Of a stretch of 64,000 bases of DNA, positions 8,222 to 49,270 are shown in pieces. This DNA is from Myxococcota bacterium (GTDB lineage: Bacteria; Myxococcota_A; Polyangia; Nannocystales; Nannocystaceae). Each line of letters opens with the position of its first letter. Position 1 is the stretch's first letter. The translations under genes and the position numbers were made by a program. The stretch lies in the NCBI GenBank assembly GCA_039028615.1, contig JBCCHT010000055.1:19945-83944 (forward strand), written 5' to 3'. The notes below the pieces were generated by a model that saw nothing but the letters and a program-made list of their open reading frames with translations, was not told the origin of the DNA and searched no databases.

Positions 8222-8432
8222 CGATGCCAGTGTGCCAGGCCGCACCGCACCGTGTCACCGGGAACGAACCATGCCGCTGGCGGTGGATTCGCGAGGACGA
8301 ACGAAGGGCTGAAGTGGCAAGTTCCGCATGCTCATCCAGCCCGGCGAGTGCAACCCGGCCCGATCGGAACACCAGGCTCCGATGGCCGAGTCGAAGCGGA
8401 TCGACTCGACCATCGGCCGTGCTCGATGAGCA

Positions 8433-10571
8433 TCACCCACCGCGGCAGTCGACGTTGCGTTCGGCTTGATCGAGCAACACTGCGGCCAGGGTGTCGGAGA
8501 TGGGCAGGCCCGGGTCGCGGTCGAGCCAGAAGAACTCGCCGACCGGGTTGACCTCGAGGAACACGTGGCGCCCATCGGGCGTGACGATGAAGTCGGCCGC
8601 GCCGTAGTTGAGGCCGAGCTTGCGCTGCAGGGCGAGCAAACCCGTCTCGACGTCCTTGGGCAGCGAATAGGGCTGCCAGTCGTTGATGAGACCCAGGCCG
8701 TCGCGACGCCAGTCGACTTCGGTCTGCGCGCGACGAGCGGAGTCGATGGATGCCGACATGACCTTCGTGCCGGCCACCGTGACCCGTAGCTCGACCACCT
8801 TGGTCAGCTCCTCCTGGAAGGTCATGGGACACAGGGAGAGCCCATCGAGTTCTTGGAGGTCCTGCTCCTTCACGCGCGTGGTGTAGACCACGTTCTCCCG
8901 GCCTTCGCGGTAGATGGCGAAGGAGTGCTGCATCTTGGTGACGACCCGGCCTTCGAGGCGTCGCCAGAAGTCGCGGGCATCCTCGGCTCGGTTGGTCACC
9001 AGCGTGCGCGGCACCTCGAGCCCGACCTCGGACGCGAGGCGAAGCTGGAGTTCCTTGTGGTGCGTGCGGGTGACCGAGGCGAGCCGATCGAGCTGGAAGC
9101 ACTCCAAGTTCGCGATGGTGCCGAACAGGGTGCGACGGGTCTCGCCCACCGCCGCCTCTCGGGTATCACCCATGGAGCGCGGCAGGCCGCCCCCCGCGGC
9201 GAAGCGCCGATACCAGACCGCCTGCAGCGACTCGAGGGCATAGCCCTTGCCGTCGACCACCACCAAGCCGGTCCCGCCGCGACTGCGCACGGTCGACAGG
9301 CCCACCTCCTGCGGATAGCGGTCGGTGTTCATGCGGATCGGCACGCCGCCCCGCTGCTCGATGGCTGCGCTGACCGTCTCGATGCACTCGTTGTCGCCGC
9401 TGTGGGTGATGATGAGCACCGTCGGTTTCGACGAGTCGGCGGTGACCACCGCGGGGGCTTGCCGAGGCGTCTCGGCCGGTTCGGTCGTGACTCCGGGCAA
9501 CGTCGCCCGAGCCTCGGCCGCCGGTCGGGGCACGACCTCGACCGGCTCGAGCACCCGCGCTTCGCTCGGCGCCCGCTCGGGCTGCCCCGTGGCGTCGACC
9601 AGCCACTGCCCGATCGCATCGGCGATGGGTAGCTCGAGGTCTCGCTCGAGCCACCCCCACTCGCCCGCGGGGTTGAGCTCGAGGAACACGTGCTCTCCCT
9701 CGGGCGTCACGATGAAGTCCATCACCCCGAAGGACAGACCCAGGCGATCGAGCAGCTGCCGCGCCTGCGCTCGCAAGGCATCGGGCACGGTGGCGTGCTC
9801 CCACGGCGGCCCCTCGTCGGCCCGAAGCCGCCGCCAGTCGACCTCACCGCGCGTGGTTCCCCGGGTATCGATCGCGCCGGCAAAGCACTGGTCTCCCACC
9901 AGCACGACCCGGAGCTCTCGCCCCTTGGGTATCTCGGGCTGGAAGATCTGCGGAACCCAGCGCAGGTCTTCGGCCTGCTGCAGGTCGTCGCTCGAGACCC
10001 GGCTGGTGTACATGAAGTCGCCGCGACCGCCCTTCATGTCGTAGCTGATGGGCGTCATCAGCTTGGTGACCACCGCCGATTCCTGCTGCGCCGCGAAGCC
10101 CCGCACCTCCCCCGGATGGTTGCTGAACAGGGTGTCGGGCACGGTCATGCCCACCCGCGCCGCCTCGATCAGCTGCCGGGGTTTGGACTCGGCCGCGAGC
10201 TGCAGATCGATGCGGTCGAGCCACCCCGCGCCATCGAGCAGGGGCAACAGCTGGGTCATGGCCACGCGGGCGTGATGGCTGGCGATGCCCCGCCACCGCG
10301 GCGCCAAGCCATCGAGGCCGCTTGCGGTCCACAGGCGGCGCATCCACACCGCCCCGACCCGCGACAGATCGACCGCGCGACCATCCGCATGGAGGACCCC
10401 TTGCACCGTGCCCTGCTGGGCACGCACCGACAGCGACAGCTCGGCGGGAAAACGATCGGTGTCGACACGGAGTGCTTCCACTCCGCGCCGAGCCACCGCC
10501 GCCTGCACGCGATCGATGGTGAAGAAGTCCCCGCGGTGGGTCAGGAGAAGGACGAGCGTGTCGTCGGCCAA
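8433..10571 (-). CDS. Tandem (fused) microviridin-type ATP-grasp peptide maturase: MdnB/MvdC-like N-domain plus MdnC/MvdD-like C-domain
   Basis: Two full ATP-grasp units: LLLTHRGDFFTIDRV...FQPEIPKGRELR...FLELNPAGEWGWLE and VLIITHSGDNECI...FQEELTKVVELR...FLEVNPVGEFFWLD, joined by a ~55-aa Pro/Ala/Glu/Thr linker. Confidence 0.9.
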   Translation of the reverse strand: MADDTLVLLLTHRGDFFTIDRVQAAVARRGVEALRVDTDRFPAELSLSVRAQQGTVQGVLHADGRAVDLSRVGAVWMRRLWTASGLDGLAPRWRGIASHHARVAMTQLLPLLDGAGWLDRIDLQLAAESKPRQLIEAARVGMTVPDTLFSNHPGEVRGFAAQQESAVVTKLMTPISYDMKGGRGDFMYTSRVSSDDLQQAEDLRWVPQIFQPEIPKGRELRVVLVGDQCFAGAIDTRGTTRGEVDWRRLRADEGPPWEHATVPDALRAQARQLLDRLGLSFGVMDFIVTPEGEHVFLELNPAGEWGWLERDLELPIADAIGQWLVDATGQPERAPSEARVLEPVEVVPRPAAEARATLPGVTTEPAETPRQAPAVVTADSSKPTVLIITHSGDNECIETVSAAIEQRGGVPIRMNTDRYPQEVGLSTVRSRGGTGLVVVDGKGYALESLQAVWYRRFAAGGGLPRSMGDTREAAVGETRRTLFGTIANLECFQLDRLASVTRTHHKELQLRLASEVGLEVPRTLVTNRAEDARDFWRRLEGRVVTKMQHSFAIYREGRENVVYTTRVKEQDLQELDGLSLCPMTFQEELTKVVELRVTVAGTKVMSASIDSARRAQTEVDWRRDGLGLINDWQPYSLPKDVETGLLALQRKLGLNYGAADFIVTPDGRHVFLEVNPVGEFFWLDRDPGLPISDTLAAVLLDQAERNVDCRGG

Positions 10572-10578
10572 GGCTCGA

Positions 10579-11739
10579 CTACCCCGCCCCGCCGTCTTCC
10601 CAATCGGACGGGTACTTGAGCGTCACCGGGCCGCCACCGCCGTCTTCTTCGTCCGACGGGTACTTCTCGGTGACCGGGCCTTCCTCGTGATCGGACGGAT
10701 ACTTGCGCGTCACCGGACCGTCCTCTTCGTCCGATGGGTACTTCCGCGTCACCGGACCGCCGCCGCCGTCCTCTTCGTCCGACGGGTACTTGCGCGTCAC
10801 CGGGCCGCCGCCGTCCTCCTCGTCCGATGGGTACTTGCGCGTCACCGGGCCGCCACTGCCATCTTCCTCGTCCGACGGATACTTGCGCGTCACCGGGCCG
10901 CCGCCGTCCTCGTGATCGGACGGGTACTTGCGCGTCACCGGACCACCGCCGTCCTCTTCGTCGGAGGGGTACTTGAGCGTCACCGGGCCGCCGCCGCCGT
11001 CCTCGTGATCGGACGGGTACTTCTTGGTCACCGGTCCGCCGTCTTCTTCGTCGGACGGGTACTTCTGGGTGACCGGTCCGCCGCCGCCGTCCTCGTGATC
11101 GGACGGGTACTTCTTGGTGACCGGTCCGCCACCGCCGTCCTCGGCGTCGGAGGGGTACTTCAAGGTCACCGGGCCATCCTCGTGATCGGAGGGGTGCTTG
11201 CGGGTGACGGGACCCTCCTCTTCGTCGGACGGGTACTTGAGCGTCTGCAGATCGGAATCGCCGCCCTGCTGATCCTCGAGGAAGCGGGCGAAGAAGGGTT
11301 GGTCGCGGACGCGCGTGGGCTCGACCTTCTCCATCAGGCGCGCCGCTCGACGACCCGCCAGACGAGCGCGACGCATCAGCGACTCGGCGTGGTCGCGCAT
11401 CTCCTTGACGCGATCGTCATGGGCGTCCTGCCAGGTCTTCGCGGCTTCGCGTTGACCGGCCTCGACCAAGGTCCGGGCCACGTCGCGCATGCGCTCGAGC
11501 ACGGTCGCTTGGCTCTCGGGTTCGTCGGACGCGGCCGCGAGTGCTTCGTGCGCTCGGTTGACGGCCTCGGCTGCCGCCTCGTTCCCGGCCGCACCTCCCG
11601 CATCACCAGAGGCCGCACGCGTGCGAGCTTTGGCGGCCTTCTTGGCGACTTTCTTCGCTACTTTTTTCGCGACCTTTTTGGTCGCTTTCTTTGCAGCTTT
11701 CTTAGCAGTGGTTTTCTTGCGCGGTCGTCGTGTTGCCAT
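10579..11739 (-). CDS. Microviridin-type graspetide precursor with 15 core repeats and a Lys-rich N-terminal extension
   Basis: PFFARFL motif (nt 11278-11298); 15 x TxK(Y/H)PSDxE(D/E) separated by G(n)PV linkers; 7 nt upstream of the ATP-grasp gene. Confidence 0.93.
   Translation of the reverse strand: MATRRPRKKTTAKKAAKKATKKVAKKVAKKVAKKAAKARTRAASGDAGGAAGNEAAAEAVNRAHEALAAASDEPESQATVLERMRDVARTLVEAGQREAAKTWQDAHDDRVKEMRDHAESLMRRARLAGRRAARLMEKVEPTRVRDQPFFARFLEDQQGGDSDLQTLKYPSDEEEGPVTRKHPSDHEDGPVTLKYPSDAEDGGGGPVTKKYPSDHEDGGGGPVTQKYPSDEEDGGPVTKKYPSDHEDGGGGPVTLKYPSDEEDGGGPVTRKYPSDHEDGGGPVTRKYPSDEEDGSGGPVTRKYPSDEEDGGGPVTRKYPSDEEDGGGGPVTRKYPSDEEDGPVTRKYPSDHEEGPVTEKYPSDEEDGGGGPVTLKYPSDWEDGGAG
10582..11244 (-). 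repeat. Coding imperfect tandem repeat, 15 units of about 39-48 nt, encoding the graspetide cores
   Basis: Recurrent gtcacc...aagtacccgtccgac...gaggacggc units (minus-strand reading) with synonymous variation and variable Gly runs. Confidence 0.92.
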
Positions 11740-45898: not shown

Positions 45899-47302
45899 CT
45901 ACTCGCGCGTCCCCGCGCCCAGCCCCAGCCGCGCCCACTCGACGAAGCGATCCGGGCTGGTGGGATCGAGACTCACGATGGAGATCGTGTTCTCGCCCGG
46001 ATTCGAGACATAGGCCTGCGCGCGCTGATCGTCGACGACGACCTCGTAGGCGCCTTCGCCCACCGGGATCGACGCGAGGACCCGAAAGCTGCCCAGGCCG
46101 ATCACCGACAGCCGGCCATCGGTCGCACAGGTCACCAGCGCGAGCGACTCCCCCGGGGTCGCGTCCTCGTCGCCCACGGGGGGCACGGGGCGATGCACGG
46201 CCAGGACGTTCGGGTTGTCGCACAGCGGGATCGCGCCGATGATCGTGTTGGCCAGATCTCCATCGTCGTCGACGCTGGTGTCGACCCGCAGCAGACCGGG
46301 CGGCGTGGTCTGGACGACGAGCAGGCGATCGCCCGTGTCGTCCTCGAACGCCATGTCCCCCATGTACGGCCGCCCCTCCACGACCTGCGGGTTGATGGTC
46401 TGCAGCGCGATCTCTTCTCCGGGCAGGATGAGATCCAACCCCTCCGCGACGGTCAGCTGCCGCATCCCGGGAAAGTAGCGATGCGCGGCATAGGCGACCG
46501 GTCGACTGCAGTCGACGCTCGTGTCTGGCGCCCGCTCGGGATCGCAGGGCCGCACGGCCACGCTGAAGCCCCCGAACAGCTCCTCTTCTTCGAAGGGCGC
46601 CGCGCGAAAGAAGCCCCCTTCGACGTCGGCGAGCTCGGGCCCGTTGTCCCCGTCGAGCGCGATCAAGGCCAAGGCCTCGCCGAGCACCTGGGGCGCATAG
46701 GCGAAGCGCGCTCCGTTGGTGTCCACCGAGATGCGAGACAGCTCGTTGGGCATGCGGGCGTTGGCCGAGCGGGTGATCTCGTGGGTCACCCCGCAACGCC
46801 CGGCATCGTCCTGGCCGCAGTCGAGGGTCACCCCGTCTTCGCCCGGCAGCACGTCGACCCACGTGACCGACACGGGGCTGCGCGTGGGCATCAGCAGCCG
46901 CAGCGGGCCCTCGGGGCCGCCCGGTCGATCGATGGCGATGTTGGCCGCCCCCGTGCCCAGCCGCACCGTGGTCTGGGCGTCGATGAACGCGGAAGGATTG
47001 CACTCGATGGTGGGGTCGTCGGCCGAGACCCTTCGACAAGGACGGCCGCCGTCGCCCGCGTCGGCCGGGTCGGCGAGCGCCATGAACAGCGCATCGAGGT
47101 CGACGGCCATCAGCGTGCCGTCTTCCTGCTGGCGATCCCAGTTGCCGTTGGTCACGAAGAGCACGGGCCCGGTGGGGCTCACCGCGAGCCCGGAGGGCTG
47201 CCGCAAAGCGTCGAGCGAGGGCAGCTGCCCCGGGTCGGGCTGGCACGCCGCCGCGACGAGCACGACGCTCGTCGACAGCACACGCAAGAGCCGAGGCACC
47301 AC
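45899..47302 (-). CDS. YncE-like beta-propeller lipoprotein
   Basis: Lipobox VAAAC, PSGLAVSP..LFVTNGNWD, IPVGEG, YVSN..ENTISIV; start at GTG 47302 inferred. Confidence 0.75.
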   Translation of the reverse strand: MVPRLLRVLSTSVVLVAAACQPDPGQLPSLDALRQPSGLAVSPTGPVLFVTNGNWDRQQEDGTLMAVDLDALFMALADPADAGDGGRPCRRVSADDPTIECNPSAFIDAQTTVRLGTGAANIAIDRPGGPEGPLRLLMPTRSPVSVTWVDVLPGEDGVTLDCGQDDAGRCGVTHEITRSANARMPNELSRISVDTNGARFAYAPQVLGEALALIALDGDNGPELADVEGGFFRAAPFEEEELFGGFSVAVRPCDPERAPDTSVDCSRPVAYAAHRYFPGMRQLTVAEGLDLILPGEEIALQTINPQVVEGRPYMGDMAFEDDTGDRLLVVQTTPPGLLRVDTSVDDDGDLANTIIGAIPLCDNPNVLAVHRPVPPVGDEDATPGESLALVTCATDGRLSVIGLGSFRVLASIPVGEGAYEVVVDDQRAQAYVSNPGENTISIVSLDPTSPDRFVEWARLGLGAGTRE

Positions 47303-47403
47303 CCGTCGAGCATGGCATGCACAGCCGCACGAGTGCGAATGACGAGCCGTCGCGGCCCCGGATCGGCCCGCACGAGCCGCCTGAGTCCAAGCCCACGCCC
47401 CGG

Positions 47404-48105
47404 CTACGAATCGAGCCCCAGCGCCCGCGCGGCCCAGATCGCGTCGTAGGCCGCCCACGAGGCCCCCGTCGCCACGAGCGCCCCGGCCACCCGCAGCCAG
47501 GGCCCGACCGCGTCACCGATCCCGGCCAGGCTGCCTCGACCCGCCACGCGAGCGACGAGCTCCGCCAACGCCCCGACGAGCAGCGCGGGCGTGGCCAGGG
47601 TGAGGGCGAGCAGCGCCAAGCCGTGGGCGAGGCGAGCGACGGAGACCTGCGAGCTCGCGTGGAGCCACGCCGCCGGATCGCCGACCGGCCACGCCGCGGT
47701 CAGAGCCTGCGCGCCGAGCAGCAAGGGTCGATGCAGGCCCAGCGACAAGGCGGTCGCCGCCACCACGCTCAACGTCAGTGCACGCCACGACGCGGGCCGA
47801 GCCTCGAGCACCGTGGCGCTCGCTTGGGCCGCGCCCAACAGCGCATAGCCGGGCAGCGCCACGACCAGCCCGAGCAGTGCACCCAGCATCAGCTCGGCCG
47901 CGGCGGCCAGCACCGGATCGACCCCGACCGCCGCCGTCGCGACGGCTCCGTCGGCGGAGGCGAGCACCACCGCGAGCACCCCGGCCACCACCAGCCAGAC
48001 CCAGCCCACCGTGGCGCGCCACAGCACCTGCACGGACAACAGCGCCCACCAGCGCAGCGCCAGGAGTCCCACGCCGAGCAGGCTGCCGATGGTCTCTTCG
48101 GCCAC
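47404..48105 (-). CDS. fliR: Degenerate FliR/SctT-like export-gate membrane protein
   Basis: Multi-TM, ELMLGALLG, LGLH..LL, ALTLATP motifs; position after the fliP/fliQ-like genes. Confidence 0.6.
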   Translation of the reverse strand: MAEETIGSLLGVGLLALRWWALLSVQVLWRATVGWVWLVVAGVLAVVLASADGAVATAAVGVDPVLAAAAELMLGALLGLVVALPGYALLGAAQASATVLEARPASWRALTLSVVAATALSLGLHRPLLLGAQALTAAWPVGDPAAWLHASSQVSVARLAHGLALLALTLATPALLVGALAELVARVAGRGSLAGIGDAVGPWLRVAGALVATGASWAAYDAIWAARALGLDS

Positions 48106-48106
48106 G

Positions 48107-48379
48107 TCAGCGCTCCGTCGTGCCCACGGCCGACAGCCGCGACCACGTGTCGGCGGTCATGGTCTGCGCCGTCTCGGCCCAGTCCCCGACCACGAAGGCC
48201 AACGCGCCCAGCACGGCCAGCCCTCGCAAGACGCCCGCCGCCACCGGATCACTCAGCCCGATGCGCGCCGCGAGCCAACCCGCGACCAGGCTGCCCAGCA
48301 CCCCCGCCAGCAACAGCGGCAGCACCACCGTCACGGCCAGACCCAGCCCCTCGAGCACCAGCCCGGGCAAGTCGGTCAT
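48107..48379 (-). CDS. fliQ: Degenerate FliQ/SctS-like protein
   Basis: 90 aa, two hydrophobic helices, EGL...LPLLLAGVLGSLV; position between P and R. Confidence 0.6.
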   Translation of the reverse strand: MTDLPGLVLEGLGLAVTVVLPLLLAGVLGSLVAGWLAARIGLSDPVAAGVLRGLAVLGALAFVVGDWAETAQTMTADTWSRLSAVGTTER

Positions 48380-48981
48380 GCGTAGTAGCCCTCCACCAAG
48401 CCGCCGATCACCACGTCCCAGCCGCCGACGGCGAGGAAGAGCAGGAGCTTGAGCGGCAGGGTCACCAGGCGTCCGGGCGCCGACGACAAGCCGAGCAGGG
48501 TCAGCGCCTGGGCGACCACCAGGTCCACCAGCACCAAGGGCAGCAGCACCAGCACCGCCATGTGCAGGGCCTCGGTCAGCTCGGTCACCAGGAACCCGGG
48601 CACCAACACCCGCGGGTCGTCCACGGGCAGCCCCTGCAGCTCACCGAAAAAGGCGAGCTCCTCCGCCGCGGCATGACGCTCCACGAACGCGCGCAGCGGC
48701 TCGAAGACGGGGATCCAGACGTCCCAGCCCGCGCTCGACAGCGCCGCCCAGCCTCCCGCTGCGTTGGCGGCCTCGAAGGTCTCCACCGCCACGGGGGCCA
48801 TGACCACGCCGGTCACCACCAGCGCCAGGGCCAGCATCGCCGACCAGGGCAGCAGGGCCTCGGCGCCCAAGCCCACCCGCAGAGCCCCCAGGACCACGCT
48901 GCTCTTGGCGAACGCGGTCGCGATGGCCAGCACCAGGGGCACCCCGGCCAAGACCAGCCAGGGGACGATCTCAGGCTCCAT
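48376..48981 (-). CDS. fliP: FliP/SctR-like export-gate protein
   Basis: TAFAKSSVVL..LR..LG, VMAPV, PLRAF, LVPGFLVTELTEA, DLVVA, LPLKLLLFLAVGGW. Confidence 0.85.
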   Translation of the reverse strand: MEPEIVPWLVLAGVPLVLAIATAFAKSSVVLGALRVGLGAEALLPWSAMLALALVVTGVVMAPVAVETFEAANAAGGWAALSSAGWDVWIPVFEPLRAFVERHAAAEELAFFGELQGLPVDDPRVLVPGFLVTELTEALHMAVLVLLPLVLVDLVVAQALTLLGLSSAPGRLVTLPLKLLLFLAVGGWDVVIGGLVEGYYA

Positions 48982-49270
48982 GGGCCTCCACGGATGCCTC
49001 GGCCTCGGCCGGCGTCGGGACCTCGGCCAGCGGCGCCAGCTCGGTCATCAGCCGCGGTGCCGCGCCCGGCCCGGTGCCCACCACCAGCCGCCGCCCCTCG
49101 AGTTCGACCACGTGCAGCGCATGCTGGCCGCCCAGGGAGATCGTGCGCCGCGTGGCACCAGAGGCCTCCGTACGCCGCTTTTGCGCCCACAGGCCCAGCA
49201 GGGCCAACCCCGCGAGCAACAGGCCCAGCGTGGTCAACGACGAGGCTCCAGCCAGGGCGAGCATCGGCAC
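48971..49270 (-). CDS. fliO: FliO-like protein
   Basis: N-terminal TM then RTISLGGQHALHVVELEGRRLVVG, a FliO-type beta domain; first gene of the operon. Confidence 0.65.
   Translation of the reverse strand: MPMLALAGASSLTTLGLLLAGLALLGLWAQKRRTEASGATRRTISLGGQHALHVVELEGRRLVVGTGPGAAPRLMTELAPLAEVPTPAEAEASVEAHGA

Follow-up and report, generated by a model that had tools for sequence, protein, structure and literature searches.

How the two ligases of microviridin biosynthesis coordinate their strict ester-then-amide order, and whether they touch each other, is the question raised by the locus described here. To our knowledge, the first ligase–ligase complex was reported only in 2026. According to the available part of PMC7823629, the MvdD-type (MdnC) ligase closes two lactones and the MvdC-type (MdnB) ligase then closes the lactam; MdnB and MdnC are homodimers, and MdnB, whose leader binding is about tenfold weaker than that of MdnC, is lost without MdnE, for which a scaffold role has been proposed. 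In the window, the whole 64,000-nucleotide stretch of DNA analysed here, which belongs to a genome of 12.3 Mb with 68% GC, one MvdC-clade and one MvdD-clade ligase lie beside a precursor gene as two domains of one protein.

The fused ligase gene and its two units

The translation of the ligase frame contains no internal stop across both ligase units (Table 1), and NCBIfam models locate two full ATP-grasp units at residues 7–325 and 385–701. The first-pass annotation of this DNA had described two such units in one frame, joined by a linker of about 55 residues at about nt 9423–9590, and the 712-residue translation with its single terminal stop and 56-residue linker agrees with this; the four motifs quoted there for the two units are all present. 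The same annotation had likened the N unit to MdnB/MvdC and the C unit to MdnC/MvdD, and profile scores, PDB matches and trees bear out both assignments. The N half alone scores 339.8 bits against TIGR04185 (MvdC) versus 242.4 against TIGR04184 (MvdD), and the C half alone 410.4 bits against TIGR04184 versus 275.9 against TIGR04185. These top-scoring, full-length matches lie below the curated cut-offs of 425 (TIGR04185) and 475 (TIGR04184), and the whole fused protein passes because its score sums both halves; unfused sister ligases also fall under the cut-offs (356 and 367 for TIGR04185, and 408 for TIGR04184 in locus L158). The best PDB matches are MdnB (5IG8) and AMdnB (7M4S) for the N half, and MdnC (5IG9) followed by CdnC (7MGV) for the C half. 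In a FastTree phylogeny of 455 sequences, assigned to the two types by their BLAST scores against the window halves, with profile checks of six unfused proteins, 213 rows form the MvdC side (support 0.87) and 242 the MvdD side (1.0). All 14 N halves of the fused proteins described below are placed on the former and all 14 C halves on the latter, so the tree puts the halves in different clades and never in the same one. A tandem duplication of one ligase is ruled out by this separation and by the 37.7% identity between the two halves.

Table 1. Features of the fused ligase gene and the neighbouring precursor gene (positions in the window)
Feature	Positions	Strand	Description
Fused MvdC-MvdD ATP-grasp ligase gene	8433..10571	-	712 aa, TTG start, one terminal stop
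N unit, MvdC/MdnB-type, predicted lactam (omega-amide) ligase	9597..10553	-	residues 7-325; profile, PDB match, tree
Linker	9423..9590	-	residues 328-383; 56 aa, P/A/E/V/T-rich, predicted disordered
C unit, MvdD/MdnC-type, predicted lactone (omega-ester) ligase	8469..9419	-	residues 385-701; profile, PDB match, tree
Microviridin-type precursor gene	10579..11739	-	386 aa; NF033738, PF12559
Lys/Ala-rich basic N-tail	11617..11739	-	20 K/R and no D/E in 41 residues
Three-helix domain	11305..11601	-	about residues 47-145, before the leader motif
PFFARFL leader (ligase-recognition) motif	11278..11298	-	role from PMC7823629 (available part)
15 tandem TxK(Y/H)PSDxE(D/E) cores	10594..11244	-	all complete

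The linker (P10, A10, E7, V7 and T6) has a GC3 of 0.86, against 0.87 and 0.89 in the two ligase domains, and residues 332–379 have a pLDDT below 50 in an AlphaFold2 model of the whole chain. Among fused homologs the linker is 33–80 aa long, variable in sequence and length, and unconserved.

The precursor and its cores

The precursor (184.6 bits against NF033738, cut-off 26) lies directly upstream of the ligase, and 7 bases separate its stop codon from the start of the ligase; no other microviridin precursor was found in the genome. None of the 15 cores has lost its Thr, Lys, Ser, Asp, Glu or final acidic residue, and the variable residue is Arg in seven, Leu in four, Lys in two, and Gln or Glu in one each; this position sets protease specificity, with Arg/Lys directing the product to trypsin and Leu to elastase (PMC7823629). 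GG occurs in 10 of the 14 inter-core spacers. The core count is that of the assembly, in which short contigs tile the array at a depth of about 17–23, and at 40 in a single bin. The precursor and ligase genes have no acetyltransferase, transporter or peptidase gene beside them, and three C39 peptidase genes are located elsewhere in the genome, none in the cluster. At G000:C18:215960-219000 of this genome, a RimK-like ATP-grasp gene has an HlyD-like gene on one side and a C39 peptidase transporter gene on the other, and this peptidase is a candidate for cutting the GG spacers in trans.

The three-helix domain was modelled with a pLDDT of 86.7 from 4 sequences. It matched no protein family, found no match in the protein search or the ESM Atlas and none in Foldseek at E<=0.001, and its best structural Z of 8.9 corresponds to a generic helical arrangement. 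Among the 73 genomes of the window's family, two match the domain, both being rows of the query alignment. The domain is shared with the precursor of fused locus L001 and matches more weakly in fused locus L002 and unfused locus L145 (E 2e-4 for L145), and basic N-tails like that of the window precursor also occur in L001 and L145. A strict linkage between the fusion and the helical domain, as seen in the three of three fused loci for which DNA is available, was considered and rejected; because L145 has its weak domain match beside an unfused MvdC gene, the stop of which overlaps the next start, the two are at most associated.

More than four cores occur in five of the 128 loci with a precursor (15, 11, 9, 7 and 6 cores); these five lie within the clade that also contains the fusions (L145 being placed by its MvdC). 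Because unfused sister ligases lie beside precursors with 7 (L158), 11 (L165) and 6 (L145) cores and the fused locus L002 has a precursor with only 4, many cores are a trait of the clade and not of the fusion, and the idea that many cores require the fusion is rejected. The earlier suggestion that the fusion may aid processive handling of a long multi-core substrate is not supported by these same loci, and AMdnC, a characterised multi-core ligase, is distributive (PMC5934393, available part).

Other precursor architectures were observed among these loci. The unfused sisters L165 (1098-2204) and L175 (3544-4404) share a precursor N-terminal region of ~130 aa that is 73% identical between them, precedes the leader motif, has no Pfam match and is unlike that of the window; many of the 11 cores of L165 read TxKAPSD, and the L175 precursor is apparently frameshifted in its repeats. 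Loci L115–L123 and L127, from genomes of the window's family, form a separate clade with single-core precursors, PFFAHLL leaders and two cysteines (TYHCLDSxCTKKYPSD), a pattern that suggests a disulfide or an extra ring before the cage.

Possible pairing of the two halves

By a modest balance of probability, the two halves would fold onto one another within the chain, forming a pseudo-heterodimer through the surface that the separate enzymes use for homodimerization. When the two halves were modelled as a complex, the score was 0.69, against 0.00 for the best of three controls; 116 of 157 solved complexes attain that mark, as do 2 of 215 mismatched pairs. The runs had at least 81% of contacts in common with a partner pLDDT of at least 79, and the modelled interface is a helix and strand surface including a long helix region, which may correspond to the long helix region at the dimer centre of PsnB (bioRxiv 2021.03.09.434688, available part). 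Because homodimers of this kind have been solved (5IG8, 5IG9, 7M4S and 7MGV), the model, which covered the hetero-pair of halves only and may have passed by memory of those structures, indicates compatibility and not preference. Pairing of paralogous ligases has a precedent in the MyxD1–MyxD2 pull-down (available part of PMC12848669).

A less probable alternative is that two fused chains associate MvdC half with MvdC half and MvdD half with MvdD half into a four-domain assembly, the linker merely keeping ordinary homodimers close. MdnB and MdnC are themselves homodimers, the disordered, unconserved linker of 33–80 aa suits both architectures equally, and a whole-chain AlphaFold2 model from 13 sequences (pTM 0.47) shows no confident inter-domain packing. 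Nor do the fused proteins carry a signal of interface remodelling beyond unfused control clades: conserved interface positions are substituted in 9 of 48 cases in fused proteins versus 22 of 232 in unfused controls (p=0.06), and two D controls reach p=0.02. Against the tethered homodimers stand the confident pairing of the halves in the complex model and the risk that two independent homodimer surfaces per chain could lead to open-ended polymers. The pseudo-heterodimer put forward in the first-pass annotation is plausible: the halves pair in the complex model, possibly through their likeness to solved homodimers, and the single-chain model does not pack them with confidence.

Active-site residues and probable division of labour

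Eleven ATP-, metal- or core-binding positions were checked per half, and all are unchanged in the window protein. The equivalents of MdnC K166/D281 and D192 come from papers, and the Arg and the DWR from bioRxiv 2021.03.09.434688. K546/D660 of the C half are the equivalents of MdnC K166/D281, which match the essential K165/D280 of AMdnC (PMC5934393), and the D(F/W)R loop is retained in the graspetide ligase halves of the window protein. The leader-contact Asp (MdnC D192) is present in all 14 MvdD-type halves (D571) and in 13 of 14 MvdC-type halves (D196); its neighbours vary, the equivalents of MdnC E191/N195 being Q570 and E574. Across the 14 fused proteins the eleven positions are invariant except for E298D in three N halves (P0005, P0007 and P0010), at a position that is Glu in 199 of 199 unfused MvdC proteins.

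Both halves are very probably active with the usual division of labour, the C unit forming esters and the N unit the amide. These roles fall short of certainty because they are read from clade membership, which does not always predict chemistry: MyxD1 belongs to the MvdD clade yet forms lactams (PMC12848669). It is quite unlikely that one half serves as an activator without catalysis of its own, or has altered chemistry, so that the product would be bicyclic or all rings would come from one active site. Such a change would fit the divergence of both halves below the family cut-offs, the E298D substitution in three of 14 N halves, the varied neighbours Q570 and E574, and the precedent of MyxD2, which requires MyxD1 (PMC12848669), but the window protein retains every checked catalytic position in both halves, the unfused sisters L145 and L158 have equally low profile scores, and the lactam Lys and the terminal acid are present in 15 of 15 cores.

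Distribution and origin of the fusion

A protein search in which the best 8,000 candidates were scored returned 18 matches, of which 13 are full-length fusions of 700–730 aa, namely the window's own protein and 12 others with 48–88% identity to it where measured; a profile search on the same scale (best 8,000 candidates scored) added none. Locus L002 (Thermoanaerobaculia) contributes one more, giving 14 distinct fused proteins in total. One of these fused homologs, from a Myxococcota bacterium, is 68% identical to the window protein, which suggests a myxobacterial host, and one fused member carries the NCBI label 'MvdC/MvdD family ATP grasp protein'. Among 112 loci in which both ligases are nearly whole, counted after removal of 10 duplicates, three are fused (the window, L001 and L002); by source, fused loci make up 2 of 63 GTDB loci and 0 of 32 metagenome loci holding both ligases. 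The fused frame occurs in two of the 73 genomes of the window's family, the window's own and G049, the protein of the latter being among the 14. Seventeen regions analysed from this family comprise one fused, one with MvdD alone and 15 with separate genes, including one with a broken mvdC and two ending at contig ends. No further fused form was found in 400 other genomes of the phylum or in 400 other genomes of the class of genome G469, and none that was new among the best 150 matches, which include one fused representative. The MvdC–MvdD fusion is accordingly a small, rare but real family.

Unfused clusters are mostly ordered precursor-mvdC-mvdD, which matches the fusion, and their stop and start codons often overlap. 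In a tree of concatenated MvdC and MvdD sequences (45 pairs used), the 14 fusions and six unfused pairs form one clade of 20 (SH-aLRT 99), outside which lie the unfused clusters of the window's own family. The trees require 2–3 changes, but a test on 30 of the 123 available pairs does not reject one origin (p-AU 0.31). Taken together, gene order and phylogeny indicate that the fusion derived from the usual neighbouring mvdC and mvdD genes, in one to three events. Recurrent independent fusion is not established, one origin being compatible with the data. Between the GEWG motif and the first MvdD strand lie 57–105 codons in 14 of 14 fusions, compared with 30–32 codons in the five of five unfused sister loci measured and a median of 40 in 92 unfused loci, so that fusions always carry at least ~26 extra linker residues. 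Plain stop loss would therefore be insufficient, and a long tether seems to be required for the fusion.

The linker, examined for a stop or frameshift as a possible sign of error, has neither. One 7,110-base Logan contig from the marine metagenome run X1 spans 8300–10816, including the linker, with 0 differences and 0 gaps, a comparison made with a contig and not raw reads from a run that is possibly the window's own source and thus not independent. The fusion is real and no assembly artefact, because 13 other distinct full-length fused proteins exist. An assembly or sequencing error, or a recent accidental read-through, can practically be dismissed: the adjacent, often overlapping mvdC and mvdD of unfused loci would make read-through easy and run X1 may be the source itself, but the 13 other proteins come from ENA, NCBI, JGI and Logan (one of them 88% identical and of equal length), the GC3 of the linker is coding-like, and the linker is far longer than read-through would yield.

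Proposed mechanism and product

Based on these comparisons, the window is somewhat more probably than otherwise a source of a one-chain, two-active-site microviridin macrocyclase that acts, its halves folded back as a pair, on the neighbouring 15-core precursor. The precursor would dock by its PFFARFL motif, and the C-terminal MvdD-type unit, with ATP, would form two lactones per core, Thr1–Asp7 and then Ser6–Glu9 of TxKxPSDxED, after which the N-terminal MvdC-type unit would close the Lys3–Asp/Glu10 lactam. Full conversion of the 15 cores would introduce up to 45 cross-links. The fusion would likely be of advantage by fixing the ratio of the two units at 1:1 and by passing substrate locally to the lactam ligase, the weaker binder, and not by true processivity. 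Because MdnB binds the leader weakly and depends on MdnE, and because no transporter lies beside the cluster, the tether is a plausible substitute for the MdnE scaffold. The product would probably be a polyvalent serine-protease inhibitor with a bias to trypsin-like targets, either kept as an array or cut at the GG spacers by a peptidase encoded elsewhere.

A further reading, which we regard as rather improbable, extends this macrocyclase to a substrate that is never cut. The single-chain pseudo-heterodimer would hold the leader on its ester half and pass cores across the dimer axis to the amide half, installing up to 45 cross-links in a polyvalent protease-inhibitor protein made of a folded domain and a string of 15 cages. 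In-trans core delivery is reportedly described in the CdnC structure paper. Were this reading true, the fusion would be a Rosetta-stone sign of MvdC–MvdD heterodimers in ordinary clusters too.

Comparison with known systems

The closest systems are MdnB/MvdC (5IG8) and MdnC/MvdD (5IG9), which resemble the window proteins in fold (TM 0.89–0.92 over the target), catalytic residues, PFFARFL leader, TxKxPSD core and the gene order precursor-mvdC-mvdD. In contrast to these two homodimeric proteins, the window encodes one polypeptide, of a non-cyanobacterial clade, so that the two separate ligase proteins that mark microviridin clusters are here a single 712-aa ORF, and unlike systems with the MdnD acetyltransferase and the MdnE transporter, the window has neither beside its genes. 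Class II multi-core microviridins (AMdnA/AMdnB/AMdnC of Anabaena PCC 7120) likewise have one leader, tandem cores and GG-containing spacers. Class II precursors carry up to five cores (available parts of PMC7823629 and PMC13039773), whereas the window precursor has 15, and its basic tail and helical domain place about 145 residues ahead of the leader motif; Class II clusters also usually include a C39 peptidase transporter, whereas here the ligases are fused and the three C39 genes lie outside the cluster.

Within Myxococcota, the myxomiditide (myx) cluster (PMC12848669) is likewise a microviridin pathway with cooperating paralogous ATP-grasp ligases (MyxD1–MyxD2), but it has four separate ligases and a KxxE motif, and MyxD1 and MyxD2 both belong to the MvdD clade. 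Four genomes of the phylum (loci L208/L223, L209, L212/L220 and L213/L221) have runs of at least three consecutive microviridin-type ligases, an arrangement resembling that of the myx cluster. The group 2 graspetide plesiocin (PsnA2/PsnB) shares repeated cores on one chain, and its ligase is an asymmetric dimer with one subunit holding the core (bioRxiv 2021.03.09.434688), but it has a single ligase, TTxxxxEE cores and esters only, and the relationship is distant (E 8e-11).

A natural MvdC–MvdD fusion was not found in the available open-access literature, where 'fused' is applied to engineered fusions with the leader or to unrelated uses in other proteins; the words 'fused', 'fusion' and 'dimer' are absent from the main text of PMC12848669, and no Enhygromyxa, Nannocystis or Plesiocystis is among the entries listed in the supplements of PMC8939145. 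The supplements of PMC12848669 and PMC13097080 could list such proteins, and the fusion is apparently undescribed. The chemistry is probably ordinary; what is new is the architecture together with the 15-core substrate.

Other genes of the genome

A 694-aa ORF of the same genome (G000:C20:109610-111691, minus strand, equal to L239:3611-5692) combines a tyrosinase domain (PF00264) with some 21 repeats of the plesiocin-like form T(T/S)xxxx(E/G)E and lies directly upstream of another ATP-grasp gene. This ORF may be a second precursor composed of a folded domain plus many graspetide cores; two of its first-site copper histidines appear to be replaced. Within the window, a short minus-strand gene run at 45902–49270 adjoins the rpoA/ribosomal-protein operon, includes a FliP-family gene (48379–48981) and possibly represents a reduced type III export set.

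Implications

The natural fusion makes the coordination of the two ligases testable in one construct, and it would offer peptide engineering a tricyclase already encoded by one gene. The window precursor triples the described number of cores, and one ligase clade has moved to long core arrays behind folded N-terminal domains.
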